Assembly: GCA_021413585.1 (NCBI GenBank)
Contig: JAIOQB010000278.1
Span: 783 to 64,782, forward strand
Reading direction: 5' to 3'
DNA length: 64,000 nucleotides
Source of the DNA: Planctomycetia bacterium
GTDB taxonomy: Bacteria > Planctomycetota > Planctomycetia > Pirellulales > UBA7805
Shown here piece after piece: positions 20,793-55,528 of the stretch. The notes under the pieces were generated by a model. That model had not been told where the DNA came from, did not search any database, and saw nothing but the letters and a program-made list of their open reading frames with translations. Both the position numbers and the translations under genes were made by a program. The stretch's first letter is position 1. Every line of letters starts with the position of its first letter.

Positions 20793-22679
20793 ATGCGACA
20801 ATTGTTATCTGGACATTATTGGGGGATCTTGGCGATTGCGGTGGGATTGTTCCTTCCCGCATCGATTTGCGCAGCCGCGGAACCAGCTGCGCCCACGACA
20901 AAAATCCCGCAATCCGTCGCCGAACTCTGGGCCGGCTACGATCCCCGCGCCGAGCCGCTTAACGTCGAAGTGCTGCGGGAATGGGTCAATAAGGGAATCG
21001 GCTATCGCTACCTGCGCTACACGGTCGGCACGTTTCGCGGCCAGCCCGCGCGTGTGGCGGCGGTGTATGCCGTGCCGCAGGGGGCGCGCAAGGTGCCGGG
21101 GCTGGTGCAGATTCATGGCGGGGGGCAGTCGGCCAATCTTAACGCCGTGCGGGCCAATGCCGAGCGAGGGTACGCCTGCATCTCGATCAACTGGCTGGGG
21201 AACCGGATCGACGGCATTCGCCCCGGGCTTCCCAATACCGACTGGGGAGCGGTCGACGCCACGCAGCGCGGCCACAACAGCGGCTTCACCAGCCTCGAGC
21301 CCGACGCCAAGACGATCGATTCCGTCACCTCGCCCAAAAACAGCAACTGGTATTCCGTCACCTCGCCCAAAAACAGCAACTGGTACCTGGGGATCATGGC
21401 GGCCCGCCGGGCACTGACGTTTCTCGAGCAGCAGCCGGAGGTCGACGGCCAGAAGCTTGGCGTCTACGGCCATTCGATGGGAGGGACTGTCACGGCCCAC
21501 GTGGCGGCGGTCGATCCGCGCGTGCGGGCCGCGGCGCCAACGTGCGGCGGTTTTGGCTCGCCCCGCGCGATACACCTCGATCCGCTGAGCCAGCGGACGA
21601 TCGCTGACGAGGCCCACTTGCCGCTGATCACCTGCCCGCTGCTGCTGGGGAGCCCGACGAACGATTTCAACGGCGCGATGGACGAGGCGGATCGGGCGAT
21701 CGACGTCGTCCACAGCAAAAGCATCCGCACTACGCGGCCGGTGCATCACGATCATCGCACCACCCCGGCCGAGGCGGTGTGCATTCCGCTGTGGTTCGAC
21801 GAGCAGTTGAAGGGGACGTTTCATTTCCCGCAGACACCCCGCATTGCGTGGAAGTTGCCGCAGCCCGACGGCGTGCCGCTGCTGGAGGTGACACCGGACA
21901 AATCGCGAAAGATCGTGGCGGTCGAATTGTTCTACAGCCGCGGCGACGATCCGCGGCGGCGGTTCTGGATCGCAGCGGCTGCCCACGAGTCGAACGGCAC
22001 CTGGACGGCCCAATGTCCCGTGCTCGACATGGACTCCACGCTCCGCGCGTTTGCCAACGTGACGTACGCGATCGACGCGCCAGTCACCACGGCGGAGTAC
22101 TACTATGAGTTCTTCACCAGCGACACGTTCAGCATTTCGTCGCGCATGCTCACCGCCACACCGGCGGAGTTGCGGGCCGCGGGGGTCAAGGGGACCGACG
22201 CGAAGTCGCTCTTGATCGACGACTTCGCCCGCGATTGGCAGGACTGGTGGATACCCTGGCGGGGATCGGTCGAGCGGTGGACTCGCAAGATCGGCGATCC
22301 AAAATGGCGAGGGCCGGATCAGGCGGTTCTGGAAGTCACCCTCAAATCAGCGCAAGACAACACGCTGGTGGTGGTGTTGAAGTCGAATCCGTGGTGGAAC
22401 CCAACTCACGTCCGACAGCCGCAAGAGTATTTTGCCACGATCAAACTGAAGGGCTCGCCCGACGGGCAAACGGTGCGAATACCGCTGAGCGACTTGCACA
22501 GCATTAACGACAGCCGGCCGCCAAACAATTGGACCGCGTTCGACGAGTTGGGCCTCGTGCCGTCATTCCATTACGAACGTGGCGGCAAAGCCCAGATCGC
22601 AGGGCAAACCTGGCGCGGACCGCCGCCCGTTTATAAGTCGATTGGCTGGTCGCTGCTGGCTGGCAATAAAACGCCTTAG
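20793..22679 (+). CDS. secreted alpha/beta hydrolase (acetylxylan-esterase/dienelactone-hydrolase-like) with C-terminal domain of unknown function
   Basis: Signal peptide. Nucleophile elbow GVYGHSMGG. The N-terminal region LWAGYDPRAEPLNVEVL resembles AXE1-type esterases. Confidence 0.65.
   Translation: MRQLLSGHYWGILAIAVGLFLPASICAAAEPAAPTTKIPQSVAELWAGYDPRAEPLNVEVLREWVNKGIGYRYLRYTVGTFRGQPARVAAVYAVPQGARKVPGLVQIHGGGQSANLNAVRANAERGYACISINWLGNRIDGIRPGLPNTDWGAVDATQRGHNSGFTSLEPDAKTIDSVTSPKNSNWYSVTSPKNSNWYLGIMAARRALTFLEQQPEVDGQKLGVYGHSMGGTVTAHVAAVDPRVRAAAPTCGGFGSPRAIHLDPLSQRTIADEAHLPLITCPLLLGSPTNDFNGAMDEADRAIDVVHSKSIRTTRPVHHDHRTTPAEAVCIPLWFDEQLKGTFHFPQTPRIAWKLPQPDGVPLLEVTPDKSRKIVAVELFYSRGDDPRRRFWIAAAAHESNGTWTAQCPVLDMDSTLRAFANVTYAIDAPVTTAEYYYEFFTSDTFSISSRMLTATPAELRAAGVKGTDAKSLLIDDFARDWQDWWIPWRGSVERWTRKIGDPKWRGPDQAVLEVTLKSAQDNTLVVVLKSNPWWNPTHVRQPQEYFATIKLKGSPDGQTVRIPLSDLHSINDSRPPNNWTAFDELGLVPSFHYERGGKAQIAGQTWRGPPPVYKSIGWSLLAGNKTP
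21321..21386 (+). repeat. in-frame 33-bp tandem duplication inside the hydrolase gene
   Basis: tccgtcacctcgcccaaaaacagcaactggtat (21321-21353) is followed directly by the same 33-mer ending in c (21354-21386). It encodes SVTSPKNSNWY twice. Confidence 0.95.
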
Positions 22680-25600
22680 CTCTGCCGGACCTGGCGGCGA
22701 CGCAGGCCGAACCAGGCCAGGCCGATCAGGCCGATCAGACCCAGGGCCCAAGTGCTCGGCTCGGGTATGCTCGTCCCCTCCAGCAGCGGGATGATTTCCA
22801 ACGAAGAGAAATCGCTATTGTGGTCGAGGACGGCCCACACTTTGTGGGCGACGGCGTCGTAACCGTAAGCACCCAAGGTGAGCAGGCTGGCGTTGGAGGC
22901 TTGGTAGCTACCCTGGTAGTCCAACAGGGCGGTATCGGTCGTGTTGACGCCATGGTTCCCTTCGTTGGCCAACTTCCAGATGCCGCCGTCGAGCCACGCC
23001 AGGTAAATGTCGGTGGCATTGTTCGCCAGCGGGCCGACGGTCATTTCAAACACGAAGACCGTGCTGTCCGTGCCGGTTAGCTTGACCACGTCGCTCACCA
23101 ACTGGGCGGAGTCACCGGAGGCCGCGAAGCCGTTGGCTTCGGGAGTCGTGCGGTTGCGCCACGTCATTTCAACGATCGTGTCGTCGCCACTGGTGTTCGT
23201 GCCGTCCACCAACTTTGCGACGGAGGCCAGGGCCTTGTCGCTCTTGCCGTTGAGCCCGGCGTACGATCCGCCGTCGGTCACGTCGGCGGTGCCGTTGCCC
23301 ACGCCGTTGGTGACGGTGTGGCCAAGGTTCCAGGTGAGTGGCCCCAGGTCCTGGTTTGTGGCTCCGGCCAGTGCCTGATCGTTCTCCAAGGCAATGGTCA
23401 ACTCGCCGACAAGGCTTTGGCCGTTGAGCAGCCCTGCGTCGCTAAAGTTGACTTTCGCCAAGGGGGAGGTGCCGGCACCGGCCGCGATGGAACTGCCGAC
23501 TTGCAGAGAGTTGTGAAGCGTCCAATGCGGGCTGAGCGTGATCGAGTCCACATAGGCCGAGGCCCGCAGCGGCGTGGCCGAGGCGTTCTGGATCGACACC
23601 AGCGAGCCGCTGTCGAGCGTGATGTTCGTGTTGGCGGACAACTGGGCCGCGGCGTACACGTTGGCCGAGACGGCCAGGTTCTGCGTCGCCAGATCGGTGC
23701 CCCCCGCGAGGTTCTGATCTTCCACGTCGTAGCCGTAGTTGGCCGAGTAATTGCCCGCGGCCGAGGTGACCAGGCCGATCGAGTTGCTCAGTGATCCATT
23801 GGCCGCGATGGTGCCGGTGGAGTTGCCCGCGCGAGTGAGCGTGGCCGTGTCGCCGCTGCCGTTGACGCCGGTCAGCACCAGGTTGGCCCGATTGGCACCG
23901 ACGTTTTGCAGATTCACGTTAACCGCGCTGACCGAGGCGCCGGCCAGCACGTTGCCGAAGTTGACCGTCGTTTGGCTCAGCGACGGGCCGGCGTGATCGA
24001 GCAGCGTTCCCTGGATCGTGGTGGTGAGGCTGGCCAATCCACTGGCCCCCGCCAGCGACTGGCGGTCGCCGGCGCTGAATGTCACCGTGTTGCTGAAGCT
24101 GCCGGCCGTGTTGCCGACGTTAAACGTCGCGGTGTACGACTGCGAGGCCGCGCCCCCGTCGATGCCGCCGATGAACACTTGCCCCGGATCGCTGAGCGAA
24201 CCGGTGCCGATGCCCGGAGTGGCCTGCACCTGCAAGGCCGAAGCGGGCGAGCCGGCCGTGTTCGTCACACCGATCGTGGCCGACAACCCGGTGGTTCCTA
24301 CGATCGCAGTGAAGTTGTTGCCGGCGGTGACGGTGGCACTACCGACCGCGTGATTGAGCACGTTGCCGCTGGCGATGACCGACTGCGTGCCGACGTTGCT
24401 GCTGGCACCGGCCAGGGCCGAGTCGTCAGCGTAAGTCAGCGTGAGGTTTTCGCTGAAGCTTCCGGCCGCCTTGCCCGTGGCCAAGCTGGCCGAGATCAGG
24501 CTGCTGCCGCCAGCGGCGACACCCGAGGCATTGCCGAGCGACACCGAGTTCACCGGGCCGTCGTTGGTGGTCTTCAGATTGGCGCGGAACCCGGTGGCAT
24601 TGCTTACGCTGATCGAGTTGCTGCTGGTCACCGGAGCCGAGTAGCCTACGATCACGTTGGCGAACGAAAGCGTAGAGGCATCGACCGAACCGGCGGCATG
24701 GTCGTAAACATTGCCGGTGAGCGTTACGGCTTGCGTGCCGAGGTTCGAGCTGGCCCCCGCGATGGCCGAATCGTCGGCGTAGGTGAGCGTGATTCCCTGG
24801 CTATAGTTGCCGACTCCCTTGCCGGTGGCGAGGCTGCCGGTGACCGTGCCGTTGCCGTTCGCGGCCACGCCCGAGACGTTGTTCACTGACAGGCCGCCGA
24901 GCGGGCCATCGTTGGTGGTCTTCAGGTTCACGCGGAAGCCGGCCGCGTTGTTGACGGTCACCGAGTTGGTGCTGGTCTGGGCCGAGCCGTAGCCGACGAT
25001 CACGTCAGCGAAGTTCAGCGTGGTGCCGCCGACCGCCGAGCCAGAAGCGTGGTCGTACACGTTGCCGGTGACCGTCACCGCCTGGGTGCCGACATTGCTG
25101 CTGGCTCCGGCCAGAGCCGAGTCGTCAGCGTAAGTGAGCGTCAGCCCCTGGCTGTAGCTGCCGGCTCCCTTGCCGGTGGCGAGGCTGGCCGAGATCGAGC
25201 CGCTGTTGCCGGCCGTGATGCCCGAGACATTCCCCAGCGAGATCGAATTCTGTGGGCCATCGTTCGTGGTCTTCAGATTGACGCGGAAACCGCTGGCGTT
25301 GCTCACGCTGATGGAGTTCGTGCTGGCCAACGGCGAGGCGTAACCGACGAACGTGTCGGCGATGGTGAGCGTCGTGTCGTCGACCGAGCCCGAGGCGTGA
25401 TCGTACACCGTGCCAGTGATATTGGCCGTCACGCTCCCCAGAGCATTGTGTCCGGTGAGCAACTGGTCGTCGCCAGCGGTGAACGTGACTTGATTGCTAT
25501 ACGCTCCGACCGCGCCGGCGTTAAACGTCGCGTTGTAATTCTGACTGGCGCCTGGGGCCAGCAGCAGGGCACCTGGGTTGCTGATCGATCCGCTGGCGAT

Positions 25601-28600
25601 CGACGGCGCGGCGCTGACTTGCAGTCCGGCCAGATGGCCCGAGCCGTTGGCCAGATTCACCGTGGCCGAAAGTCCGGTCGCTCCGACGATGGCCGAGAAG
25701 CCGTCCCCGGCGGTAATCGTGGCCGTGGGGGCCGCGTGCCCCTTCACGTCGCCGGTCAGGTTGAGCGTCAGCGGCGTGGCGTTGAGCGTGGCTCCGGCCA
25801 GATCGGTCCGGTCGCCGATCCCCACGGTGTACGTGGCGCTCAGCGTGCCGACCGTGCCGGTGGACATCGAGGCGGTGAAGGCCTGGCTGCTGCCGGCGGC
25901 CAGGTTCGTGAAGTTGTTGACGCCTAGGTCCGTAGTCAACTCCGAAGTGTTCACACCGCTGGGCGTGATCGTGCCCCGGTTCAGTCCGGCGGTGTTAGCG
26001 CCGCTGAGATTGGCGATGTTGAAGCCGGCGGTTTGCGTCGAGGCGCCGGTGATCACAGTCCCCAGGTCCAGCGTCAGCGAATCGTTATTAACCGACGTGC
26101 TGTTGAACGAGCCGTTGGAGTGATTCAGCACGTTGCCGCTGACGTTGACCGTTTGCGAGCCAGTGATGCTGCTCGCTCCGGCCAAAGCCGAGTCGTCGGC
26201 ATAGACCAGCGAGATGTTCTGGCTGTAGCTTCCCACCCCCTTGCCGGTCGCCAGGCCCGCGGTCAGTGCGCCGCTGCCGCCCGCCGCCACACCGGCCACG
26301 TTGCTGAGCGACACGCCGCTGAGCGGCCCGGTGTTGGTGGTCTTCAGGTTCACGCGGAAGCCGGCGGCGTTGCTCACGTTGATCGCCGTGTTGCTGGTCA
26401 CCGGTGCCGAGTAGCCGACGATCACATCCTGCATCACCAATGACGCGGTATCGACCGAGCCGGACGAATGGTCGTAGACGTTGCTGTTGAGCGTGATGTT
26501 CTGCGTTCCCGTGTTGTTGCTCGCGCCGGCGATGGCAGAGTTGTCGGCGTACGTGAGCGCCAGGTTCTGGCTGTAGCTGCCCACCGCCTTGCCGGCGGCC
26601 ATGGTGCCGGTGATCGTGCCGTTGGAGTTGGCGGCCAGCGACGAAATGTTGGTCATCGAGAACCCGTTCTGCGGGCCGTTGTTCGTGGTCTTCAGGTTCA
26701 CGCGGAAGCCGGCGGCGTTGTTGATCGTTACCGCGTTGGCGCTGGACTGCGTTGAACCGTAGCCGACAATCACGTCGGTGAAGTTCAGCGTCGAGCCGCC
26801 GACGGTCGAGCCGGAGGCGTGCTCGTAGATGTTGCCGGTGACGGTGATCGTGTCGGTTCCCACGTTGTTGCTGGCTCCGACCAAGGACGAATCGTCGGCA
26901 TAGGTCAGCGTCACTCCCTGGCTGAAGCTGCCGGAACTCTTGCCGGTGGCCAGGCTGGCGGTGATCGGGGCGCTGGCGTTGGCCACGATGTTGGAAACAT
27001 TGCCCAGCGAAATCGAGTTCACCGGCCCGTTGTTGGTCGTCTTGAGATTGACCCGGAAGCCGGTCAGATTGTTCACGCTGATCGAGCCCGTGCTGGCGAC
27101 CGGTGATGCGTAGTCGACAAACACGTCGGGAATGACCAGCGTCGAGCCGCTGACAAACCCGCGAGCGTGATCGTAAACATTGCCGGTGATGAAAATCGAA
27201 GAAGTTCCCAAGCCGCTGCTCTGTGCTCCGGCCAGTGCCGAATCGTCGGCATAGGTGAGCGTGATGGCCGAGAGGAAATTGCTCACCCCCTTGCCGGTGG
27301 CCATCGTGGCGGTCAGCAACCCGCTGCTGCCGGCCGCGACGTTGGAGACGTTATTGAGCGAAATCGTGCCGTTGGGACCATTGTTGGTGGTCTTGAGATT
27401 CACACGGGCACCCGCCGCGTTGTTGACCGTCAGCGCGTTGCTGCTGGCCACCGGCGAGCTGTAACCGACGATCACGTCGGGGATGGTCAGCGTATCAGTG
27501 ACGACCGAACCGGAGGCATGGTCGTACACGTTATACGTCAGCGTTTGGTTGAGCGTGCTGAGCGCGTTGTGTCCGGCCAGACTCTGCGGATCGCCGGCGT
27601 CGAGGCCCACCGCCAGCGTTTTGCCAATGCCGGCGACGGCAGTGTTGAAGCCCGTGGCAGTGTAGGACGCCGAGTTGCCGGTGGTCACCACATTCGAGCC
27701 GGTGGTGCCGGTGAGGTGATTCAGGTTGGCGACATCCAGCGGAGCCGACGCGGTGCCGGGGTTCGACAAGCTCAGCGTGGCGGCAGACAGCGAGTTGCCT
27801 ACGATCACCGACTGGTTATTGCCGCTGGCGATGGTCAGCGTGGGAGCCGCATGGTCGTAAACATTGTACGTGACGGTCTGGCTCAGCGTGGTTAGGGCAT
27901 TCGCACCGGACAGGGTCTGCTGGTCCCCCGCCTTGAGGCTCACGGCCAGGGTCTTGCCGATGCCGGAGGTGGAGCTGTCCAGGGCAGTCGAAGTGTAGGT
28001 GCCCGAGCCGCCGGAAGCGACCACGCCCGAGCCGGTCGTGCCGGTCAGGTTGCTCAGCGTGTTGACATCGAGCGGGGCCGGCGCGGCGCCGGTGGTGTTC
28101 GCCAAGGTCAACGTGGCGTTGGCAAACGAGCCGCCGACGAAGCCCGATTGGTTGTTGCCGCTGGCGATGCTCAGCGTCGGGGTCGAATGGTTGTAGACGC
28201 TGTACGTGACATTCGTGCTGAGGTTGCTCAGGCCATTGTGGCCCGTGATGGTTTGCTGATCACCGGCATTGAGGCTGACCGACAGGGTCTTGTTGAGCCC
28301 CACCGTGTTGGTGATGAAGCCGGTGGCGGTGTAGCTGCCGGTGCCGCCCGAGGCGACTACGCCCGAACCGGTCGATCCGGTCAGATTAATCAGCGAATTG
28401 ACATCCAGCGGCGCCGGCGTCGACCCGGCCGTGTCGGCCAAGGCGACCGAGACCGCGGCGAGCGAGCCGTTGATGATCACCGACTGATTGTTGCCGCTGG
28501 CCACCGTGAGCGTGGGTGCCGAGTGGCCATACACATTGATCGTGCCGGTGGCGGACGCGGCATAGGCCGAACCGCGACCCGAGAGATTCGTGTCCTGCAC

Positions 28601-31600
28601 GGTGGCCGTGAAGGTTTGCGTTTGGCCGAGGCCCGCGGTGCTGGTGTTGAACGTGCCGGTGTAGCTCTGGCTGCCGTTGGCGGCGACCAGGGCGGCGCCG
28701 GTGCTGCCCGTCAGGTTGCTGGTGAGACTGTTCACGTCCAGGGCCGCGTTGTTGGCCCCCGCATTCGTCAGGCTCAGCCCCGCCGTGGCGGCGGTGGCAC
28801 CCACGATTACAGTTTGATTGTCGTTGGTGTTGAGTGTGAGCACGCCGTTGGAATGGGCGTAAACATTGTACGTGAAGTTGGCGGTCTTCGAGCTAAGTGC
28901 GCTGGCGCCAACGATCGTCTGCTGGTCGCCGGCCAAGAGGCTCGTGGCCAGCGTCTTGTTCAGGCCGACGGTGGTGGTATCGAAGCCAGTGGCGGTGTAC
29001 GTACCCGAGGCGCCGGAGGCGACCACGCCTGAGCCGGTCGTGCCGGTCAGGTTGCTGAGTGTATTGACATCCAACGGAGCCGGCGTGGTGCCGGCCGTGT
29101 TGGCCAGCGTGGTGGTAGCGGCGGCCAGGGTGCCGCCGGTGATGATCGACTGGTTGTTGCCGCCGGCGATGGTCAGCGTCGGGGCCGAGTGGTTGTAAAC
29201 GCTGTAGGTGAACGTTTGGTTCAACGTGCTCAAGGCGCTAGCGCCGGAGATCGTCTGTTGATCCCCCGCCTTGAGGCTCACCGCCAACGTCTTGTTGATC
29301 CCCACGGAGTTGGTCACAAAGCCGGAGGCGGTGTACGTGCCTGAAGCACCCGAGCCGACCGAGCTGGCGCCGCTTAAGTTGCTGAAGGTATTCACATCCA
29401 ACGGAGCGGGCGTCGTGCCGGCGGTGTTGGCCAACGTGGTCGTCGCCGCGGCGAGCGAATTGTTGATGATCACCGCCTGGTTGTTGCCGCCGGCGATGGT
29501 GAGCGTCGGGGCCGAGTGGTTGTAGACGTTATAGGTGAACGTCGTGCTCAGCGGGGTCAGTGCGTTGGCTCCCGTGATGGTCTGCTGATCCCCGGCGTTG
29601 AGGCCCACGACCAGCGTCTTGCCGATTCCGACTGAGCTGTTCACAAAACCGGTGGCGGTGTAGGTGCCAGTACCGGCGGCGGCGACGACGCCCGAGCCGG
29701 TGGTGCCGGTCAGGTTGCTTAGCGAGTTGACATCCAGCGGAGCCGACGTGCTGCCCGGATTGGACAGGCTGGCCGTGGCGGACGACAACGCCGTGTTGAC
29801 GATCACCGACTGGTTGTTGCCCGTGGCCACCGTCAGCGTTGGAGCCGAATGCGTGTAGACGTTGTAGGTGACCGTCTGGCTCAGCGTGCTCAGTGCATTG
29901 GCCCCAACAACCGTCTGCTGGTCCCCCGCCTTGAGGCTCACCGCCAACGTCTTGCCGATCCCGGCGGTGGAATTGTCGAGGGCGGACGAGGTGTAAGTGC
30001 CGGTGCCACCCGAGGCGACGACGCCCGAGCCGCTCGTGCCGGTCAGGTTGCTAAGCGTATTCACATCCAGCGGAGCGGGCGTGGTGCCCACGGTGTTCGA
30101 CAACGTGAACGTGGCGTTGGCAAAGCTGCCGCCGACAAAGCCCGATTGGTTATTGCCACTGGCAAAAGTCAGCGTCGGGGCCGAGTGGTTGTAGACGCTG
30201 TAAGTAAAGCTCGAGCTGAAGGGGCTCAAGGCGTTGGCGCCGGTGATCGTCTGCTGGTCGCCGGCATTGAGGCCGACGTTGAGCGTCTTGCCGATGCCTA
30301 CCGAGTTGGTCACAAAACCTGTCGCGGTGTACGTGCCCGACGCGCCGGAGCCAACGGTGCTGGCACCGGTCAGGTTGCTCAGCGAGTTGACGTCCAACGG
30401 GGCCGGAGTCGCGCCGGCGGTGTTCGCCAAGGTGACCGTGGCCGCGGCAAGCGAGTTGTTGATGATCACCGACTGGTTGTTGCCGCCGGCAATGTTGAAT
30501 GTCGGGGCCGAGTGATTGTAGACGTTGTAGGTGAAGCTGGTGTTCAGCGCGGCCAAGGCGTTATGGCCGATGACGGTTTGATCGTCGCCCGCAGTCAGGC
30601 TCACGGCCAGCGTCTTGCCGATGCCGACCGAGTTCGTCACAAAGCCCGTGGCGGTGTACGTGCCTGTGCCGCCGGCGGCCAACACGGCCGAGCCGGTCGC
30701 TCCGGTCAGGTTGGTCAGCGACGCGCCGACATCCAGCGCCGTCGAGCTGCTGCCAGGATTGGAGAGCGTGGCGGTGGCCGAGGTGAGCGAGTTATTGATG
30801 ATAATGGATTGATTGTTGCCGCTGGCCACGGTCAATGTCGGAGCGGTGTGGGAATAGACGTTGACGGTCCCGCCGGTGGTGGCGGTGGTCGTAATCGCGT
30901 TGAGGTCGGTATTCTTGATGCTCCAGGTCTTGCCCAGGCCGACCGCGCCGGCGGTGAACGTGCCACCGATGTTCGACGTGGAACCCCCGGCCACCGTCGA
31001 TCCGGACGAGGAGGTGAGGCTGCTGACCGTGCCGCCGGTGCCGCTGTTGTTGGCCAGCGCGACGGCTAGCGCGGTCGAGTTGGTCGGCGCGGTGTTGCTT
31101 AGGATCGCGCTAATGCTGGTGGTCGCGCCGGTGATGATGTTGATCGTGGCCGGGTTGGGAGAGGTCAAGGTTTGATCGGCCTTGTGTGTCAGGTCAATTT
31201 CCCCGTTGGCTCCGGTGATTACAGAGAGTGTGTAAGCGGAGTCGAGGCCGGTCACTGCGCCGAAACCGCCGTCGGATGCGAGGTTGCCGTTGCCGGTAAA
31301 CGTGATGCCGGTGGTGAAGCCGGCGATCTTGTACTTGCCGAGCGTGGGGCTGACCATGTTCAGCGCCAGCACGCTGGTGGCGCTGCTGGTGTTGAGCGTG
31401 CCGGTGACATTGAGCAAGTCGGTGTTGGCACCATTGATGTCAATATCCAGCACGCTGCCAGTGTTAAAGGTCGTGGTATTGCTGGTGGTATTAATACTAA
31501 AGGTGCCGATGTCGTTGATGCCCGGGGCAATGTGGGCACCGGCGGTTATGGAGAACGAGCTACCGGGCGTATACGTTCCCTTGCCGCCGAAAGTGCCGCC

Positions 31601-34600
31601 GGAAACCAACGTGATCCCCCGGGTAAAGGTGACCCCCGAGGCGACATCGAGTTCACCGCCACTGTTGACCGTAATGGTGCCGCTGCTCCCCAGCGCGCCG
31701 GCGTTGCCCACGACGAGGTTGCCCGCGTTGGCGTTGGTCGCCCCGGTGCGGCTGCTCGTGGCGTTTAAGGTCAAGACGTTGGTGCCAACCTTCGTCAGCG
31801 TATTGGAATTGGCCGTCAGACCTGCGGTCAGCGTGATGTCCCCCGTGCCGCCGATACTGGCTCCGCCCGTGCCGATCGTGACCACGCCCGAATAAGTTGC
31901 CGCCACGTCGCTGTTGGTGAGTGCTCCGTTCGAACTGACGCCCGTGCCGATGATGGACAGGGCTTCGGAAGTGCTGAGCGTGATGCCGTCCAGGTCGAGC
32001 GCTGCTCCGGTGGCGGTGACCGAGGTGCCGGTGGCCGTGGTGCCCAGCGGCGTGTTCGTGCCGTTGCCCGCCGCCCCCAGGGCCAGCGTGCCGGCGTTGA
32101 TCGTCGTGGCCCCAGTGTGGGTGCTGGTGACCGCGACCGTCAGCACACCGCTGCCGTCCTTGATCAACTGCGCCAAGCTGCCGGTGGTGATTCCCGTGGT
32201 GCTGATCGTGGTGTTGCCCGAACCGCCGACGGTCAGATCATTGCCGGTTCCGGTGATCCCGCCACTGAGAGTCAGCGTATTGGCATCGGAGTTGACGCGG
32301 CTGTCGGTGGCCAGGTTGACCGCGGTCGACCAGGAGTTGTCGCCGCTGATGTTGCGCAGGGCACCCGTAGTGCTCACGCCGGTTCCGTTGAGTGTTAGAG
32401 TTTCGCCGGTGACGGCGATGCCACCTTGAAGTTGCAAGGTGGCGCCGCTGGTCACCGACGTCCCGGCGGCAGTCGTCCCCAGCGCCGCGGCGTTCTGGAC
32501 GTTCAACGCGCCGGCGCTGATCGTGGTCGTGCCGGTGTAGTTGCTGGCGACCGCTAACGTCAGCGTGCCGTTGCCATCCTTGGTCAGCGTCCCGCCGGTC
32601 GAGGTGTTGATGCCGGTGGTTTGAACCGTCGTGTTGCCCGCCCCCCCCACCGTCAGGCCGAGGCCGGTGCCGGTGATGCCGCCGCTAAGCGTGAGCGTGC
32701 CGGCGTCGGAATTGATCCGGCTGGCGGTGCCGAGCGTCACAGCGCCCGCCCAGGAGTTGGTGCCGCTGATGTTGCGCATCGCGCCATCGGCGGAAACCCC
32801 CGTGCCGTTGAGCGTCAGCGCCTGGCCGCTGACTGCGATGCTGTTTTGAAGCTGCAGGGCGGCACCCGACGCCACCGACGTGCTGCCGGTCGTGCCCAAG
32901 GCCGTGGCATTCTGAATGTTCACCACGCCGTCGCTGATCGTCGTATTGCCGGTGTAGTTGCTCGTCGCGCTGATGGTCAGCGTGCCGTTGCCGTCCTTGG
33001 TCAGCGTGCCGCCGGTCGAGGTGTTGATGCCGTTGGTTTGAATCGTCGTGTCGCCGGCGCCACCGACCGACAAGGCGAGACCTGTCCCCGTGATTCCTCC
33101 GGTGATGGTCAGCGTGCCGGCGTCGGAATTGATACGGCTGGCGCTGCCGAGGACGACGCCGCCAGCCCAGGAATTGGTGCCGCTGATGTTGCGCAGCGCG
33201 CCGTCGGTGGCCACGCCCGTGCCGTTGAGCGTCAGCACTTCGGCGCCGACTGCGATTCCCCCCTGAACTTGCAAAGCGGCCCCGGCGGTGACCGACGTGC
33301 CCCCCGTGACCGGATCACCCAGCGCCGAGGAGTTTTGGATATTCAGCACGCCGGCGATGATCGAGGTGGCATTGTTGTAGATATTCGCACCGGAGAATAT
33401 CTGAGTGCCCGCCCCCGACTTGGTGATCCCGACATTGCCGAAGCTGCCGTCCTGGATGATGCCGCTGAATGTATTTGATCCACTGGCGACATTGATGGTC
33501 AGCAGGGTGTCGTTTCCGCTGGTGGCGCTGTCGTTTGTAACCGTCCCCGTGCCGGTCAGGCCGGCGATGGTCGCTTCGAACCCATCCGTGCGGAGGATGC
33601 CCCCTGTATTGATCGTGACGATGGAGGTGCTTGCAATCTGGTTATTAGAAGCCAAGAGAACGACATCCGTTCCACTGCCGTCCCCGATGGTCAGACTTCC
33701 GGCAACTGCCGTGACGTTGTCGCTCTTGTCGAGGACGAGCGTACCGGCGTTGACCGTGGTTGCTCCCGTGAACGTGTTGGCGGCGGTGCCGGAGAACGTC
33801 ATCGTGCCGGCGCCGGCCTTGATCAGGCTATTGGCGGTGGTGCCGTTGGAAATGACGCCGCCGATGGTGAGCGTGCCGGCATTGGCCGTCACTGTGCGGG
33901 AAGTTCCCGCCGCGGAGCCCAGCGAGACGGCCCCGGTCCCCAGGTTCAGATCGCTGCTGCCGGTGAACGCGAAGTCGCCGTTCCAGGTTTGGGCGTTATT
34001 GTTGGCCAGCGTTTTAGCACTGCCGCTGGTGTTATTGATCGTGCCGGCCGTGATCGTCAATGTGCTGGCGGTCGCGCCCAGGGCAGTCGTGCTGTTGATG
34101 TTCAATGTGCCCGTAGTGAGCGTAACGCCGCCGGTGAATGTGTTAGCCGAACCGGAGAGCGTCAGAGCGCTCGTGCCGCTATTTTGCACCACCGCCACGG
34201 TGCCGAGATTATTGGTAATGCTGCCGCTGAGCAGGACCGCGCCAGTACTGCCACCGAGATTGGTAATAGTCTTGGTGCCGGAAGATCCTGCGGAGATGCC
34301 ACCCGAAATCGTAAATGTGTCCGCATCGGCGTTGGCGATATCCAGGAAGCTCCCCTTAAGGAGAATCGGCGCCGAGATGGTGTCGCCATTGCTGCTGGAT
34401 TCCTGATTGATTTGCGCGTGCGAGGCATTGTTATCAAAAATCAACGAGGCGCCACCCGAGGCGGCAATGGTAAATGAATTAGTGTCATCCGTGTCGCCAA
34501 TATTCAGGATGCCAATGGTCCGCGAAGTAGTATCGATCGTGATCGTCGCGTTTGAACTGATAGCATTGTCGATGTTCGCAATATCACCGGCTGCGTTCGG

Positions 34601-34777
34601 GACGGAACTAAATCCCCAGTTGAAAGTGGAACTCCAATTACCACTCGTGGTACTCCAGGTTCGCGTTACAGCATGCGCAGTCATCGGCTCGGCCAGCAGT
34701 CCAACAATCACCAGCAGCATCCACGGAAGGTGGTAGATGCGGCTAAGGCTGCGGTGATTGGATTTTTTATTAGTCAT
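22676..34777 (-). CDS. giant (4033 aa) PEP-CTERM-anchored surface repeat protein with autotransporter-associated beta-strand (PATR) repeats
   Basis: ORF 22676..34936 trimmed to ATG 34777 (MTNKKSNHRSLSRIYHLPWMLLVIVGLLAEPMTAHA, GGAGAG upstream). PATR-type repeats (KDGNGTLTLAVASNYTGTTTISAGALNVQN) run over about 30880-34500. Ten ~110-aa repeats (VYNHSAPTLTIAGGNNQS...) cover about 27545-30880. About eleven ~117-aa repeats (GNVYDHASGS...VIVGY...NAAGFRVNLKTTNDGP...LTYADDSALAGAS) cover about 23650-27545. A unique C-terminal domain ends in a PEP-CTERM tail. Confidence 0.9.
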   Translation of the reverse strand: MTNKKSNHRSLSRIYHLPWMLLVIVGLLAEPMTAHAVTRTWSTTSGNWSSTFNWGFSSVPNAAGDIANIDNAISSNATITIDTTSRTIGILNIGDTDDTNSFTIAASGGASLIFDNNASHAQINQESSSNGDTISAPILLKGSFLDIANADADTFTISGGISAGSSGTKTITNLGGSTGAVLLSGSITNNLGTVAVVQNSGTSALTLSGSANTFTGGVTLTTGTLNINSTTALGATASTLTITAGTINNTSGSAKTLANNNAQTWNGDFAFTGSSDLNLGTGAVSLGSAAGTSRTVTANAGTLTIGGVISNGTTANSLIKAGAGTMTFSGTAANTFTGATTVNAGTLVLDKSDNVTAVAGSLTIGDGSGTDVVLLASNNQIASTSIVTINTGGILRTDGFEATIAGLTGTGTVTNDSATSGNDTLLTINVASGSNTFSGIIQDGSFGNVGITKSGAGTQIFSGANIYNNATSIIAGVLNIQNSSALGDPVTGGTSVTAGAALQVQGGIAVGAEVLTLNGTGVATDGALRNISGTNSWAGGVVLGSASRINSDAGTLTITGGITGTGLALSVGGAGDTTIQTNGINTSTGGTLTKDGNGTLTISATSNYTGNTTISDGVVNIQNATALGTTGSTSVASGAALQLQNSIAVSGQALTLNGTGVSADGAMRNISGTNSWAGAVTLGTASRINSDAGTLTLSGGITGTGLGLTVGGAGNTTVQTTGINTSTGGTLTKDGNGTLTLAVASNYTGTTTISAGALNVQNAAALGTTAAGTSVTSGATLQLQGGIAVTGETLTLNGTGVSTTGALRNISGDNSWSTAVNLATDSRVNSDANTLTLSGGITGTGNDLTVGGSGNTTISTTGITTGSLAQLIKDGSGVLTVAVTSTHTGATTINAGTLALGAAGNGTNTPLGTTATGTSVTATGAALDLDGITLSTSEALSIIGTGVSSNGALTNSDVAATYSGVVTIGTGGASIGGTGDITLTAGLTANSNTLTKVGTNVLTLNATSSRTGATNANAGNLVVGNAGALGSSGTITVNSGGELDVASGVTFTRGITLVSGGTFGGKGTYTPGSSFSITAGAHIAPGINDIGTFSINTTSNTTTFNTGSVLDIDINGANTDLLNVTGTLNTSSATSVLALNMVSPTLGKYKIAGFTTGITFTGNGNLASDGGFGAVTGLDSAYTLSVITGANGEIDLTHKADQTLTSPNPATINIITGATTSISAILSNTAPTNSTALAVALANNSGTGGTVSSLTSSSGSTVAGGSTSNIGGTFTAGAVGLGKTWSIKNTDLNAITTTATTGGTVNVYSHTAPTLTVASGNNQSIIINNSLTSATATLSNPGSSSTALDVGASLTNLTGATGSAVLAAGGTGTYTATGFVTNSVGIGKTLAVSLTAGDDQTVIGHNALAALNTSFTYNVYNHSAPTFNIAGGNNQSVIINNSLAAATVTLANTAGATPAPLDVNSLSNLTGASTVGSGASGTYTATGFVTNSVGIGKTLNVGLNAGDQQTITGANALSPFSSSFTYSVYNHSAPTLTFASGNNQSGFVGGSFANATFTLSNTVGTTPAPLDVNTLSNLTGTSGSGVVASGGTGTYTSSALDNSTAGIGKTLAVSLKAGDQQTVVGANALSTLSQTVTYNVYTHSAPTLTVATGNNQSVIVNTALSSATASLSNPGSTSAPLDVNSLSNLTGTTGSGVVAAAGTGTYTATGFVNSSVGIGKTLVVGLNAGDQQTITGANALTPLSTTFTYNVYNHSAPTLTIAGGNNQAVIINNSLAAATTTLANTAGTTPAPLDVNTFSNLSGASSVGSGASGTYTASGFVTNSVGINKTLAVSLKAGDQQTISGASALSTLNQTFTYSVYNHSAPTLTIAGGNNQSIITGGTLAAATTTLANTAGTTPAPLDVNTLSNLTGTTGSGVVASGASGTYTATGFDTTTVGLNKTLATSLLAGDQQTIVGASALSSKTANFTYNVYAHSNGVLTLNTNDNQTVIVGATAATAGLSLTNAGANNAALDVNSLTSNLTGSTGAALVAANGSQSYTGTFNTSTAGLGQTQTFTATVQDTNLSGRGSAYAASATGTINVYGHSAPTLTVASGNNQSVIINGSLAAVSVALADTAGSTPAPLDVNSLINLTGSTGSGVVASGGTGSYTATGFITNTVGLNKTLSVSLNAGDQQTITGHNGLSNLSTNVTYSVYNHSTPTLSIASGNNQSGFVGGSFANATLTLANTTGAAPAPLDVNTLSNLTGTTGSGVVASGGSGTYTSTALDSSTSGIGKTLAVSLKAGDQQTLSGANALTTLSQTVTYNVYDHAAPTLTIASGNNQSVIVGNSLSAATLSLSNPGTASAPLDVANLNHLTGTTGSNVVTTGNSASYTATGFNTAVAGIGKTLAVGLDAGDPQSLAGHNALSTLNQTLTYNVYDHASGSVVTDTLTIPDVIVGYSSPVASSNALTVNNAAGARVNLKTTNNGPNGTISLNNVSNVAAGSSGLLTATMATGKGVSNFLSAITLTYADDSALAGAQSSGLGTSSIFITGNVYDHARGFVSGSTLVIPDVFVDYASPVASTGSISVNNLTGFRVNLKTTNNGPVNSISLGNVSNIVANASAPITASLATGKSSGSFSQGVTLTYADDSSLVGASNNVGTDTITVTGNIYEHASGSTVGGSTLNFTDVIVGYGSTQSSANAVTINNAAGFRVNLKTTNNGPQNGFSMTNISSLAANSNGTITGTMAAGKAVGSYSQNLALTYADNSAIAGASNNTGTQNITLNSNVYDHSSGSVDTASLVMQDVIVGYSAPVTSNTAINVSNAAGFRVNLKTTNTGPLSGVSLSNVAGVAAGGSGALTAGLATGKGVGSYSQNISLVYADDSALAGASSITGSQTVNVSGNVLNHSNGSFNSTSVNNDSLTLDLGTVITGASTQTAGFNIANLSGANTAGLNRGTITPSGVNTSELTTDLGVNNFTNLAAGSSQAFTASMSTGTVGTLSATYTVGIGDRTDLAGATLNATPLTLNLTGDVKGHAAPTATITAGDGFSAIVGATGLSATVNLANGSGHLAGLQVSAAPSIASGSISNPGALLLAPGASQNYNATFNAGAVGAYSNQVTFTAGDDQLLTGHNALGSVTANITGTVYDHASGSVDDTTLTIADTFVGYASPLASTNSISVSNASGFRVNLKTTNDGPQNSISLGNVSGITAGNSGSISASLATGKGAGSYSQGLTLTYADDSALAGASSNVGTQAVTVTGNVYDHASGSAVGGTTLNFADVIVGYGSAQTSTNSVTVNNAAGFRVNLKTTNDGPLGGLSVNNVSGVAANGNGTVTGSLATGKGVGNYSQGITLTYADDSAIAGASSNLGTQAVTLTGNVYDHAAGSVDASTLSFANVIVGYSAPVTSSNSISVSNATGFRANLKTTNDGPVNSVSLGNASGVAAGGSSLISASLATGKAAGSFSENLTLTYADDSALAGASSNVGTQSVIASGNVLNHAVGSATVTAGNNFTAIVGTTGLSATIGVTNTAGSPASALQVQATPGIGTGSLSDPGQVFIGGIDGGAASQSYTATFNVGNTAGSFSNTVTFSAGDRQSLAGASGLASLTTTIQGTLLDHAGPSLSQTTVNFGNVLAGASVSAVNVNLQNVGANRANLVLTGVNGSGDTATLTRAGNSTGTIAANGSLSNSIGLVTSAAGNYSANYGYDVEDQNLAGGTDLATQNLAVSANVYAAAQLSANTNITLDSGSLVSIQNASATPLRASAYVDSITLSPHWTLHNSLQVGSSIAAGAGTSPLAKVNFSDAGLLNGQSLVGELTIALENDQALAGATNQDLGPLTWNLGHTVTNGVGNGTADVTDGGSYAGLNGKSDKALASVAKLVDGTNTSGDDTIVEMTWRNRTTPEANGFAASGDSAQLVSDVVKLTGTDSTVFVFEMTVGPLANNATDIYLAWLDGGIWKLANEGNHGVNTTDTALLDYQGSYQASNASLLTLGAYGYDAVAHKVWAVLDHNSDFSSLEIIPLLEGTSIPEPSTWALGLIGLIGLAWFGLRRRQVRQS
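22679..22768 (-). other. PEP-CTERM sorting signal
   Basis: C-terminal 30 aa IPEPSTWALGLIGLIGLAWFGLRRRQVRQS, comprising a PEP motif, a hydrophobic helix and an Arg cluster. Confidence 0.85.
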
Positions 34778-35133
34778 TCTTACTCTCCTGCCTGCGTTGA
34801 TCGGTCGCTTACGAAGCTTGCCCACATTCGTCGTATCCGCTCCGACCGCCAAACTTGTGCTGCTCGCCGTTCCGCAGTTCACCTCTAGCGCGGGCGGGGA
34901 GCCCGACAGCGGTGAGTGGAGTTGCCAGCGTGGCAACGTAAAAATGCACGGGGTGACCGCGCTCTCGCGTCATTCGCAAGGGCGCCGCCGGGTGTGCATT
35001 AGGTTGGGGTGGGGGGCGATTAGCGTTTCTCAAAGCGTTTCAATTGTCCGCAAAGTACTCGCCTGCTTTGAAGCCTATGATAAACAGATGCATAAACTAG
35101 TCAAGCTAAGTAGAATAAATAAGCTAACCATTT

Positions 35134-35190
35134 TGGGTGTAATGGGAAGTTTACACTACGATTTACAGGGGTTTACACTTGGCCTTTACA
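35134..35190 (+). promoter_or_regulatory. AT-rich island with two TGGG-N5 9-mers followed by four phased TTTACA direct repeats, upstream of the giant gene
   Basis: TGGGTGTAA (35134) and TGGGAAGTT (35143). TTTACA at 35150, 35162, 35172 and 35185, giving spacings of 12, 10 and 13 bp. Lies 360-410 bp upstream of ATG 34777. Confidence 0.5.
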
Positions 35191-35451
35191 GAAGTAGCGC
35201 GGACCTCGCGTGAGAAAGAAAAACACCGTAAAAACAAGCGTTTTTCTGTACTTCGACGCAGCATCGAGGTCGTCAATGAAACGAAACTCGATGCAGCACG
35301 AACGGATGGTTGGTCGCGCCGCGACCAGAGTTGCCGGCTGAATCGACCCGCGATGGGCCCTGATAAAGGGCCCAAGAAAAATGAGCGGCGAAAAGGTAGG
35401 CAAGCAGTACTCACTGCTCAAACCACTCAAACCTCAACACCCGTTTTATCC

Positions 35452-36822
35452 TTACGCGCCAAAATACCCGCGCCACGCCAGGTCCAGCACTTCGTCGCTC
35501 AGCTCCAGCTGCCGATCGCGCAGGCGGCAGATGTCGCGGCAGCGTTCGATCAGATCGCGCGGCTCGCAGCAGCGCATCGACCGCTGCTCTGTTTGATAAC
35601 GGGCGAACAGCTTGCTCAACAACTCCGCCGGGACATCGAGTCCAAGTTGCGCCGCATAGCGGCGGAAGATTTCCGAATATCGCTCCGCGTCGGGATTGTC
35701 CAAGTGAACCCGATAGCCGATCCGCCGTAGGAACGCCGGGGTCATCACCTCCTGCGGATCGAGATTCGTCGACACCACCAGCAACTGCCGGAACGGGATC
35801 GCCACCTGCTGCCCCGTTTGCAGCGTGAGAAAATCGACCTGCCGTTCCAGCGGATGGATCCAGCGGTTGATCAACTGCTCGGGCGAAACGCGCTGGCAGC
35901 CAAAATCATCGAGCAGGAACGTGCCGCCGTTCGCCTTGACGTGCAATGGCGCTTCGCAAAAACCCTGGTTGTTGCTGAAGATCAGGTCCAGCGATTCCAA
36001 AGTCAGCTCGCCGCCAACCACAATAAACGGGCGGCGGACCCGCACCCAGCGCTGGTCGATCAATCGCGAAACATTGCTCGCCGACTCCAGTGGCGTCGGC
36101 TCGTGCACCGTCGGGTCGTAGATGCGGATGATGTTGTGATCGACCCCCAGGCAATGCGGAATCCACAGCGATCCGTCGACCGCATCGTGCAGTAGGTGCC
36201 CTAGCGTTGTCTTGCCGTTGCCCGGCGGGCCGTAGAGGAACAGGCTGCGCCGCGACAGGAGCGACAGGCCGACCACCTCCACCGTTTCCGACGACAAAGC
36301 CAATTCCGAAAGCGCGGTCGACACGCCGGCGAGCGTCGGCTCGGGCAGATGATCGAACTGCCAGCGCAGACTGGCGGCATAATCGGCCAGCGACACGGGG
36401 ACCGGCCCGATGTAGTTGGAAATCTCCAGCAGCCGCAGCGCCTGCTCGCGGCCGCGGTCCGTGATCGCCACATGGTGATTGAACACGCCCACCTGGCCGA
36501 GCAGCTCGACCAGATTGTCCGCCCGCAGCCGATCGAGAAGCTGCGACGTCAGGGCAGGGGGGAGGCAGAGCCGCTGCGATGCCCACTGCGTGGTGAACCG
36601 CGGCACGCTGTACGCCAGCTTCAGCGCCAGACCTTCCAGCACCGCCAGATCGATCCCCGTTTCGGCAAGATCCGAAACAGCCTGCGGCGCCGGGATGCCG
36701 CCGATATCGACCAGGCGATGATTGGGCGTCTGTGGCACGACGGGAGCCGGCACGACAGGTGTCGCGGCCGTCGCCGGCGCGGCCGTCCGCACGCTCGTTG
36801 ATTCTTGTTGGATCTTCAACAT
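35452..36822 (-). CDS. AAA+ ATPase of unknown function with N-terminal winged-helix-like region
   Basis: 456 aa. Walker A LFLYGPPGNGKTT, Walker B GGTFLLDDFG, sensor-1 LLVVSTNL, and Arg-rich AFLRRIGYRV. The N-terminal ~200 aa include LLDRLRADNLVELLG...VAITDRGRE. The start lies 60 bp downstream of the tadC stop on the same strand. Confidence 0.75.
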   Translation of the reverse strand: MLKIQQESTSVRTAAPATAATPVVPAPVVPQTPNHRLVDIGGIPAPQAVSDLAETGIDLAVLEGLALKLAYSVPRFTTQWASQRLCLPPALTSQLLDRLRADNLVELLGQVGVFNHHVAITDRGREQALRLLEISNYIGPVPVSLADYAASLRWQFDHLPEPTLAGVSTALSELALSSETVEVVGLSLLSRRSLFLYGPPGNGKTTLGHLLHDAVDGSLWIPHCLGVDHNIIRIYDPTVHEPTPLESASNVSRLIDQRWVRVRRPFIVVGGELTLESLDLIFSNNQGFCEAPLHVKANGGTFLLDDFGCQRVSPEQLINRWIHPLERQVDFLTLQTGQQVAIPFRQLLVVSTNLDPQEVMTPAFLRRIGYRVHLDNPDAERYSEIFRRYAAQLGLDVPAELLSKLFARYQTEQRSMRCCEPRDLIERCRDICRLRDRQLELSDEVLDLAWRGYFGA

Positions 36823-48414: not shown

Positions 48415-49845
48415 TTACAACAGGTCATATTTATGCAGCTTCTTGTACAACGTCACCCGGCTGATTCCTAAATGCCGGGCGGCCAGCGAGCGGTTGTTGC
48501 CGCTCTGGTCCAGCGCGTTGCGCAACAGACGGAACTCCACGTCAAAACGGGCTTCGTCCAGCTTGGATGCCACCGGCCGCTGCGGTTCGACGCTGCCCAC
48601 GTGGCTTCCCTGCTGGCGCACCGCCGCCGGCAAATCCTCCAGATCGACCGGACGGCCAGGGTACAACGCCACGGCGCGTTCCATCACGTTGCGCAACTCG
48701 CGGATATTGCCCGGCCAGGAATAATCCTCGATCGCGGCCAGCGCCTGCGGCGAAATCGCCGGCGGCAGGCAATCGTGCAACGCCGCCACGTCCGCCAGAA
48801 AACGGTTCGCAAACGGGACAATCACCGAGCGCCGCTCGCTCAGTGGCGGCAACCGTAGCGTCACCACGTTGACGCGATAAAACAGGTCCGAGCGAAATTG
48901 CCCCGCCGCCACCTGCTCTTCCAGCGAACGCGTGGCGGTCACGATGATCCGGGCAGTCAGCGGCACCGGGCGATCGCTGCCGACCGGTTCGAACACCTGT
49001 TCGTCGATCGCCCGCAACAACTGGGCCTGAGCGGCCGGCGGCAAGGCGTCGACGTCGTCCAGCAGAATCGTCCCATTCTGGGCAGCGGAAAGCTTGCCGG
49101 CGCGATCCGCTTCCACTCCGCCAAATGAACCCTTTACATGGCCAAATAATTCGCTCTCGACCAGACTGGGACTAAGCGCGCTGCAATTGATCGCCACAAA
49201 CGGTTCGTTCGGCCGAGCCGACAATTCATGAAACAATCGGGCCAGGTGGGTCTTGCCCGTTCCCGTTTCACCGGTCAGCAGCACGGGCGTGGCCAGCGAT
49301 GCCAGTTGACGCATCTGCTCGACGATGCCGGCCATCTCTTCGGACTTGTCGTACAGAAACGGCGGCTGGGAACCGATGCTGCACAAACCCGCATTGAGCC
49401 TGGCGGCGTTCGGAAACGCGCCGTAGTACGACTTGAACGTCAGCATGTCGACGACAAACGCCAGGCGAAGCAGATCCAACGGCCGCGCCAGATAGTCCGC
49501 CGCGCCGTGTGCCAGCAGCTTGACCGCCTGCGGAGTCTCATAGCGATCGCAGATCGGCACCGCCGCGGTACTGCGTCCCGAGCTGCGGCACTGGTCGATC
49601 AAATGCAGTGCTTGTGCTTCGTCGAGGGCTGGGGAAGGCTCGGTTGCCGTGTCCTTGCTGTCGGCGCCGGCAACGTGCATCAGCATGACCGCCGGTCGGG
49701 CGGTCTGAAGCTGGCGCTCTGCATCGGCCACACGATCGACGACGTTCAATCGGCAGCGGCCCACGGAAACCATGGCCTGCTCGACCGCGGCGCGTAGCGC
49801 AATATCGCTGGTAACCAGCAGTGCAGTCGCAGGCATGATAAACAA
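48415..49845 (-). CDS. NtrC-family AAA+ transcriptional activator (receiver-like N-domain, sigma-54-interaction-type AAA+ domain, Fis-type HTH)
   Basis: Walker A LLTGETGTGKTHLARLFH, then ESELFGH. GSFGGV occupies the GAFTGA position. C-terminal HTH NRSLAARHLGISRVTLYKKLHKY. Confidence 0.85.
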   Translation of the reverse strand: MFIMPATALLVTSDIALRAAVEQAMVSVGRCRLNVVDRVADAERQLQTARPAVMLMHVAGADSKDTATEPSPALDEAQALHLIDQCRSSGRSTAAVPICDRYETPQAVKLLAHGAADYLARPLDLLRLAFVVDMLTFKSYYGAFPNAARLNAGLCSIGSQPPFLYDKSEEMAGIVEQMRQLASLATPVLLTGETGTGKTHLARLFHELSARPNEPFVAINCSALSPSLVESELFGHVKGSFGGVEADRAGKLSAAQNGTILLDDVDALPPAAQAQLLRAIDEQVFEPVGSDRPVPLTARIIVTATRSLEEQVAAGQFRSDLFYRVNVVTLRLPPLSERRSVIVPFANRFLADVAALHDCLPPAISPQALAAIEDYSWPGNIRELRNVMERAVALYPGRPVDLEDLPAAVRQQGSHVGSVEPQRPVASKLDEARFDVEFRLLRNALDQSGNNRSLAARHLGISRVTLYKKLHKYDLL

Positions 49846-55059: not shown

Positions 55060-55196
55060 GATCTGCGCATGTGCTGTTAGATTGTGGGAATGCCCCGGCG
55101 TTTATACCTAGTTAGCCTGCTGGCGCGAACGCACTGTTACCGCACGTCGAACTCCGGAGACCAGGAAGCGGGCATTCGCGGGTGATGGGGACTCAG

Positions 55197-55416
55197 GTCC
55201 CGGAGGGACCATTGAAAATAGCCCAGCGATTCATCGCTGGGTTCGAGATCTCAATGCCAGTGCGTCCCGGAGGGACGCTTGAACATTCAGATCCGGTTGG
55301 CTCGCACGTTATCCTGTGCTTTGTCTTCAAGCGTCCCTACGGGACGCAGACGAAATGCGCGCTGAACTTTACCCAGCGATAAATCGCTGGGCTATTATCG
55401 TGCGTCCCTGCGGGAC
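55197..55416. repeat. composite nested palindrome (MITE/REP-like)
   Basis: Four GTCCC-NNN-GGGAC hairpins at 55197, 55264, 55333 and 55404. Two CCCAGCGAT-NNN-ATCGCTGGG hairpins at 55222 and 55372. The arms gggacgcttgaa / ttcaagcgtccc and aatagcccagcga / tcgctgggctatt pair across the element. Confidence 0.8.
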
Positions 55417-55528
55417 GGGGTATACGCGAGGAGAGTCGTCATCATAGCGATAACGCGTTAAACACTCACCGACGTTTATGCCGGAACGTCTACAGGTTTT
55501 ACTGCCCGACCACTTTCCAAAGAGCCAC

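Follow-up and report, generated by a model that had tools for sequence, protein, structure and literature searches.

We describe an array of four identical TTTACA hexamers (35150-35190, plus strand) in a 64,000-nucleotide stretch of contig JAIOQB010000278.1, hereafter the window, which belongs to a planctomycete metagenome-assembled genome of 62% GC and in which all the genes relevant to this work lie on the minus strand. The array precedes a giant gene encoding a PEP-CTERM surface protein of 4033 amino acids (22676-34777, minus strand), and it is real and non-random. We set at roughly 0.5 the probability that these boxes constitute a direct-repeat operator for a response regulator from the OmpR/PhoB family and its KdpE clade, which would control the giant gene; within this reading the binding, the position of the promoter and the direction of regulation are what we infer.

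The boxes occupy positions 35150-35155, 35162-35167, 35172-35177 and 35185-35190. Their starts are 12, 10 and 13 bp apart and the spacers between them measure 6, 4 and 7 bp, exactly as in the sequence quoted by the initial annotation of this DNA (35148-35194). Their distance from the ATG of the giant gene at 34777 is 373-413 bp, in good agreement with the 375-410 bp given there. Two geometrical claims of that annotation stood only in part. It had described the boxes as helically phased, which at 10.5 bp per turn applies to boxes 1-3, all within ~50 degrees of one face of the helix, but not to box 4, which is ~120 degrees off. It had also invoked the classic binding geometry of OmpR/PhoB regulators, and the boxes are indeed direct repeats on one strand (the only inverted partner seen by eye is a weak GTGTAA/TTACAC pair), but only the middle pair shows the canonical 10-11 bp spacing, the others being at 12 and 13 bp. 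On the minus strand, which is that of the giant gene, the array reads GTAAA-N8-GTAAA-N5-GTAAA-N7-GTAAA.

TTTACA occurs 11 times on both strands of the window, four of them in the array, and it is the sole non-trivial hexamer with four non-overlapping copies in 41 bp anywhere in the window. When the window was shuffled with dinucleotides kept in 200-bp blocks, some hexamer reached four copies in 41 bp in 24 out of 1000 shuffles, giving a window-wide p of ~0.024 with the flanks of the boxes not yet counted. These flanks are themselves partly repeated, since the 9-mer GTTTACACT is common to boxes 1 and 3, at a distance of 22 bp, and TTTACAG to boxes 2 and 4, at a distance of 23 bp, and the whole element can thus be written as two units of 22-23 bp, each made of GTTTACACT, a spacer of 3-5 bp and TTTACAG. 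Such a structure is the one expected if a 22-23-bp segment carrying two TTTACA had been duplicated in AT-rich intergenic DNA, leaving a functionless array with a coincidental likeness to known half-sites, and the chance level of 2.4% is modest enough to be compatible with that origin. Moreover, multi-copy TTTACA runs often arise as simple minisatellites: scanning metagenomes for four TTTACA with flexible spacers retrieved more than 120 loci, nearly all of them perfect repeats of 13 bp. In our array, however, the boxes agree at all 24 hexamer positions whereas the spacers (ACGA versus TGGCC, GGG versus AAG) share almost nothing, which is suggestive of selection acting on the boxes more than of a recent, decaying duplication. 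A tandem repeat or minisatellite proper was ruled out, because Tandem Repeats Finder, run on the array with a minimum score of 30, reported no tandem repeat, a result that speaks against duplication as well, and because the spacers are unrelated, unlike those of the perfect 13-bp TTTACA minisatellites in metagenomes.

Metagenomic arrays with diverged spacers were few and stood in unrelated contexts, one of them (L188) in eukaryote-like low-complexity sequence. As a separate observation, two unrelated contigs, L110 (693-733) and L116 (5867-5907 on the reverse complement), carry four TTTACA at spacings of 13, 9 and 13 bp with conserved boxes and diverged spacers; the L110 array sits between divergent helix-turn-helix genes, and the context of both looks like a Bacteroidetes-type mobile element, as judged from the translations of the open reading frames.

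The array lies in the 675-bp intergenic region between an AAA ATPase gene (35452-36822, minus strand) and the giant gene, more precisely in an AT-rich trough of 38-43% GC. A terminator-like hairpin with a T-run (35401-35420, minus strand) follows the ATPase gene and suggests that the giant gene, presumably the one regulated here, has a promoter of its own. Its most likely start is the ATG at 34777, preceded by the Shine-Dalgarno sequence AGGAGAG (34789-34783) and opening a signal-peptide-like N-terminus; the predicted product continues with PATR repeats and ends in a C-terminal PEP-CTERM anchor. The term "adhesin" used in the initial annotation was a guess, the features recognised being the PATR repeats and the PEP-CTERM anchor. 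A consensus scan predicted a sigma-70-like promoter, TTGACT-16 nt-TATCAT, at 35077-35104 on the minus strand (10/12 matches), which would start transcription at ~35070 and produce a leader of ~290-295 nt. The TTTACA boxes would then lie at ~-80 to -120 and ~45-90 bp upstream of the predicted -35 box on the strand of the giant gene. Overlapping this candidate promoter there is a second, proximal array of TTTATN type (35079-35123, minus strand), made up of TTTATC (35079-35084), TTTATG (35091-35096), TTTATT (35114-35119) and CTTATT (35118-35123, all in plus-strand coordinates), which lies 30-70 bp from the TTTACA boxes in the opposite orientation; it could equally be plain promoter or UP-element sequence.

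A different interpretation of the boxes is that they are promoter architecture themselves, either -35-like hexamers (TTTACA compared with TTGACA) of an antisense or small RNA transcribed from the plus strand or phased T-tracts that bend the DNA ahead of the promoter of the giant gene. One plus-strand match of this kind does exist (TTTACA-18 nt-TACACT, 35150-35179, 9/12), the AT-rich trough would suit it, and several hairpins are found to the right of the array (35217-35374). Nonetheless, only one of the four boxes has a -10 partner, and the array is followed by neither a plus-strand gene nor an Rfam family (E no better than 0.12) nor a terminator. T3 tracts repeated at 12, 10 and 13 bp would bend DNA only weakly and are imperfectly in phase, and bending does not demand exact conservation of all six positions. 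We therefore regard this as the least probable of the explanations discussed here.

If the boxes are an operator, the window offers one candidate to read it. The gene at 60817-61521 (minus strand) encodes the only OmpR-type regulator in the window, a response regulator from the OmpR/PhoB family that falls in the KdpE clade. Among NCBIfam models it matches KdpE best (248.8 bits, under the cut-off of 325), it aligns end to end with the chains of the KdpE-DNA crystal structure (4KNY, E 5e-69; LRVFMAGLRRK...LTEQG in that alignment), and it keeps the equivalents of R193, R200 and T215, the residues that E. coli KdpE requires for binding (PMC3264566). Its scores against the CpxR model (122 bits, cut-off 341) and the RpaB model (185 bits, cut-off 330) are lower. 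The claim of a KdpE-like regulator encoded 26 kb from the array was thus well founded, and so was that of its dead partner kinase: in a tblastn search of the window with the intact 563-residue kinase of a related locus (L202), only residues 55-140 and 524-560 found a match, which means that the GAF domain, HisKA and most of the ATPase domain have been deleted. On this sequence evidence the kinase gene (61648-62120, minus strand) is an internally deleted pseudogene in which the DUF4118 membrane part is joined, through a frameshift, to the final ~35 residues.

The place of this regulator among its relatives provides further information. Homologues 65-75% identical to it form two groups, one of 232 residues encoded in kdpFABC-kdpD-kdpE operons, which has ETHY just before the recognition helix (SHY in E. 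coli), and one of 235 residues with (S/N)TQH at this site, encoded between a short DUF4118-GAF-HisKA kinase and the ammonium transporter gene amt. In our alignment (A2, columns 197-200) ETHY appears in all five kdp-linked proteins and TQH in five of the six amt-linked ones (TQY in P0295), and the window regulator belongs to the 235-residue, amt-linked group. We fetched six amt-type loci (L201-L205 and L208), five of them independent, L204 being a near-duplicate of L203; a PII gene follows amt in four out of the six. Directly 3' of the regulator gene, a phased array of TTTATN hexamers with 11-9-11-type spacing is present in all five independent loci (L201, 17200-17260; L202, 10830-10880; L203, 6540-6595; L205, 6745-6800; L208, 1660-1715) and in the window, where it spans 60746-60792 on the plus strand between the regulator gene and amt, and consists of TTTATC (60746), TTTATG (60757), CTTATG (60766), CTTATG (60777) and TTTACC (60787), spaced by 11, 9, 11 and 10 bp. 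The T-rich strand of these arrays is opposite to amt, and the TTTACA array is oriented likewise to the giant gene. Upstream of amt (58535-60427) a sigma-54-type promoter of the form GGTAY-N6-TTGC (CGGTATGCAAATTGCA in the window, 60570-60585, minus strand) recurs in the five independent related loci, the arrays lying 160-200 bp upstream of it. A KdpE-like operator would here adjoin a KdpE-like regulator gene, and this arrangement is the best available guide to what the regulator is likely to bind.

To score the window for this motif class we built a matrix from 18 hexamers of the relatives only, with the window excluded, and searched both strands for the highest-scoring chain of four sites at distances of 9-13 bp. 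The amt array of the window itself ranked first (33.7), the minus-strand array at 35079-35123 second (30.4; local-shuffle p 0.003-0.005) and the TTTACA array third (29.0; local-shuffle p ~0.001), followed by the next best chain in the window with 19.6. Local dinucleotide shuffles match the scores of the two giant-gene arrays in 0.1-0.5% of trials, other regions of the window with equal or lower GC score 19.6 at most, and in 768 kb of related GC-rich loci a score of at least 24 was reached only at the training sites and at one further place (24.1). Taken together, the array scores, the shuffles and these other loci set the region upstream of the giant gene clearly apart in this motif class.

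These scores also bear on whether the array is a functionless duplication. Such an origin would have to yield both a repeated hexamer conforming to TTTAYN on either strand, roughly a 1% event in AT-rich sequence by our own estimate, and a second high-scoring array 30-70 bp away from the boxes. It gains some weight from the collections we searched, which returned no evidence of conservation and no orthologous giant-gene promoter: the N-terminal 450 residues of the giant protein found matches only at the level of PATR repeats, the closest homologue of the AAA ATPase is ~63% identical, and none of 80 loci with ATPase homologues (at most 62% identical) had a downstream TGTAAA/TTTACA cluster, although these loci are not syntenic orthologues and the absence of the cluster there consequently says little. 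On balance we consider a functionless array improbable.

Several observations weigh against an operator for a KdpE-clade regulator, beginning with the lack of an orthologous promoter just mentioned. With 12, 10 and 13 bp, the array departs in spacing both from the 11 bp of the KdpE operator and from the 11-9-11 pattern of the amt arrays. Position 5 of the box is C in all four TTTACA boxes, versus T in 17 of the 18 boxes of the relatives. The matrix is short, AT-rich and in essence TTTAY, so that its ranking in a genome of 62% GC partly reflects composition. The promoter of the giant gene is a consensus match only, and a weak sigma-54-like element is also present. As for the regulator itself, the deletion of its kinase leaves its activity uncertain, its conserved neighbour amt lies 26 kb away from the giant gene, and it carries the STQH of the amt subgroup versus the ETHY or SHY of true KdpE. 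The KdpE-operator interpretation advanced in the initial annotation is upheld in part: a KdpE half-site, a KdpE-clade regulator and the third rank under the model speak for it, whereas the spacers are not the expected 5 bp and the partner of the regulator is amt, not kdp or adhesin genes.

The family of the putative binder is better supported than its identity. That the kinase-less regulator encoded at 60817-61521 specifically binds these boxes is plausible and has more in its favour than the initial annotation could draw on, though we hold it to be less likely than not; the binder could about as well be a KdpE paralogue of the kdp type, or some other member of the OmpR family, with its gene elsewhere in the genome. 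In the few promoters seen, the ETHY/TQH difference correlates with TTTAC- versus TTTAT-type boxes, and the two readable planctomycete kdp promoters have the order TTTACG-20-CTTAAC-11-TTTGAC (L209) and TTTACG-20-CTTAAC-12-TTTACG (L211); their TTTACG boxes indicate that TTTAC-type boxes may belong to the kdp-type paralogue. It is tempting to speculate that the orphaned regulator of the amt module, after losing its kinase, gained a second target in the double array that stands before the giant PEP-CTERM gene beside the Tad locus, but we hold this to be rather unlikely.

A regulator of another class would do away with the KdpE clade altogether. The array might be the upstream site of a sigma-54 enhancer-binding protein, with the response regulator encoded at 48415-49845 acting on a promoter at 35064-35049, or a LytTR-type protein might bind the GTTTACACT pair. 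The repetition of this 9-mer at 22 bp would fit LytTR geometry; a LytTR protein, on the other hand, did not turn up in the window. Four direct repeats are also unlike the sites of enhancer-binding proteins, which usually are inverted repeats. PEP-CTERM genes of proteobacteria are typically sigma-54-driven, with a PrsR site upstream (PMC1569441). In line with this, a sigma-54-dependent, NtrC/PrsR-like response regulator is encoded in the window (48415-49845, minus strand), upstream of both the PEP-CTERM gene and the tad locus. Its third-best NCBIfam match is the PEP-CTERM-box regulator PrsR; yet its 268 bits are well under the cut-off of 502.6, and AtoC and RtcR score higher. A -24/-12 candidate of GG-N10-GC form (AGGCGAGTACTTTGCG, 35049-35064, minus strand) is likewise found 272 nt from the ATG and 86-140 bp downstream of the array, much as the related amt arrays lie at a distance upstream of a conserved sigma-54 promoter. 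It has GG and GC correctly spaced and is a weak match (8/12) compared with the amt element, its -24 part being AGGCGA as against GGTAY in all amt promoters. Given, in addition, that TTTACA matches OmpR-family half-sites exactly, we consider a regulator of another class as improbable as a functionless array.

Were the boxes indeed an operator read by a KdpE-clade regulator of OmpR/PhoB type, phosphorylated dimers would be expected to bind head-to-tail to neighbouring boxes, using either the pairs 1-2 and 3-4, 22 bp apart, or the 10-bp pair 2-3. The bound dimers would then recruit or block RNA polymerase, and may cooperate over the promoter with the oppositely oriented TTTATN array at 35079-35123.

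Other features of the neighbourhood deserve a brief mention. The AAA ATPase gene is the last one after a cluster of tad/cpa pilus genes, which comprises genes for CpaB, a ParA/CbiA-family P-loop ATPase (at the TadZ/CpaE position), CpaF and two TadB/C-type proteins. Between the terminator and the boxes (35217-35374) we noted the inverted repeat AGAAAAAC/GTTTTTCT (35217-35247), a hairpin with an 11-bp stem (35258-35297), the perfect palindrome TGGTCGCG-c-CGCGACCA (35311-35327) and the inverted repeat TGGGCCCT-gataa-AGGGCCCA (35354-35374). The putative 5' leader contains the direct repeat AGCGTTTC in two copies 12 bp apart (35022 and 35034), the palindrome TTGCCAgcgTGGCAA (34922-34936) and, on the strand of the gene, a terminator-like hairpin with a T-run (34962-34946) that could be an attenuator. 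Folding of this leader compared with shuffled sequences revealed no unusual stability (z = 0.10), Rfam found no family at gathering score over the intergenic region, and no small open reading frame in this region was convincing. Elsewhere in the window, two copies of the Acido-Lenti-1 RNA motif (RF01687; 39.7 and 49.1 bits, gathering score 37) are found in opposite orientations ~130 bp apart, at 55196-55241 (minus strand) and 55372-55417 (plus strand).

To our knowledge almost nothing has been established about the control of giant PEP-CTERM surface proteins in planctomycetes, and a four-box operator would provide a concrete, mutable handle for studying that of one such gene. As a regulatory element the array would be a further example of a well-known class of cis-elements, and the more novel by-product of this work is the conserved amt-associated KdpE-like module. 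The regulators of this module are annotated as KdpE by their sources and have no kdp genes nearby; the combination of a KdpD-like DUF4118-GAF-HisKA kinase, a KdpE-like regulator, a phased TTTATN array, a sigma-54-type promoter and amt looks like an undescribed nitrogen-related two-component system, whose regulators automated annotation would have mislabelled as the potassium regulator KdpE. If one regulator serves both sites, it would exemplify the rewiring of a regulon after the loss of a kinase, and a second target at the giant gene would couple surface attachment to ammonium or ion status.

Among known operators, the one of E. coli KdpE provides the closest precedent for the box itself. KdpE binds the half-sites TTTATA and TTTACA, which have 5 bp between them (11 bp apart), at -72 to -50, with about equal affinities for both (PMC3264566); the two half-sites and their distance are as the initial annotation had given them. 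The two elements have in common AT-rich 6-bp direct repeats, the hexamer TTTACA, which is half-site S2 of KdpE, and a location upstream of the -35 region, here the predicted one. They differ in the number of boxes, four instead of two half-sites, in the spacers, 6, 4 and 7 bp instead of 5 bp, in the position, a predicted ~-80 to -120 instead of -72 to -50, and in the downstream gene, which specifies a PATR/PEP-CTERM surface protein here and the K+ pump KdpFABC in E. coli. The amt arrays resemble the TTTACA array in having four or five direct TTTAYN hexamers in the same orientation to the gene and with pairs about two helical turns apart, but their boxes are of TTTAT type with 11-9-11 spacing, adjoin the regulator gene and go with a conserved sigma-54 promoter, whereas the TTTACA array is of TTTAC type, 26 kb from the regulator gene, and has a weak sigma-54 candidate.

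Two further OmpR-family sites come close to the array. The CpxR box is defined as GTAAA-N(4-8)-GTAAA in either orientation, with a spacing range of 9-13 bp accepted (PMC5063474), and on the minus strand all three adjacent pairs of the array fit it (N8, N5 and N7), the middle one being the classic N5. CpxR is an envelope and surface-stress regulator, but belongs to a proteobacterial system, and no CpxR orthologue was identified among the genes of the window. RpaB, which activates or represses according to the position of its site, recognises the HLR1 element, two copies of (G/T)TTACA(T/A)(T/A) with a 2-nt spacer and a 10-bp period (PMC6525291). Boxes 2 and 3 (TTTACAggggTTTACA) have this core and the 10-bp spacing; on the other hand, GG and CT occupy the (T/A)(T/A) positions here, HLR1 consists of one pair, and RpaB is confined to cyanobacteria and plastids. 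Since TTTAC-type boxes would suit a kdp-type paralogue, CpxR and RpaB as well, the identity of the hexamer does not single out the regulator of the window.

With regard to the gene downstream, PEP-CTERM genes have been described as standing singly behind large intergenic regions with a regulatory role, those of proteobacteria carrying a PrsR site and a sigma-54 promoter at a mean distance of 71 nt from the start codon, while the upstream regions of non-proteobacterial members were left undescribed (Haft et al. 2006, PMC1569441). Although the best promoter match here is sigma-70-like and the repeats are direct repeats of OmpR type, the giant gene conforms to that general organization in standing alone behind a large non-coding region furnished with candidate regulatory motifs.

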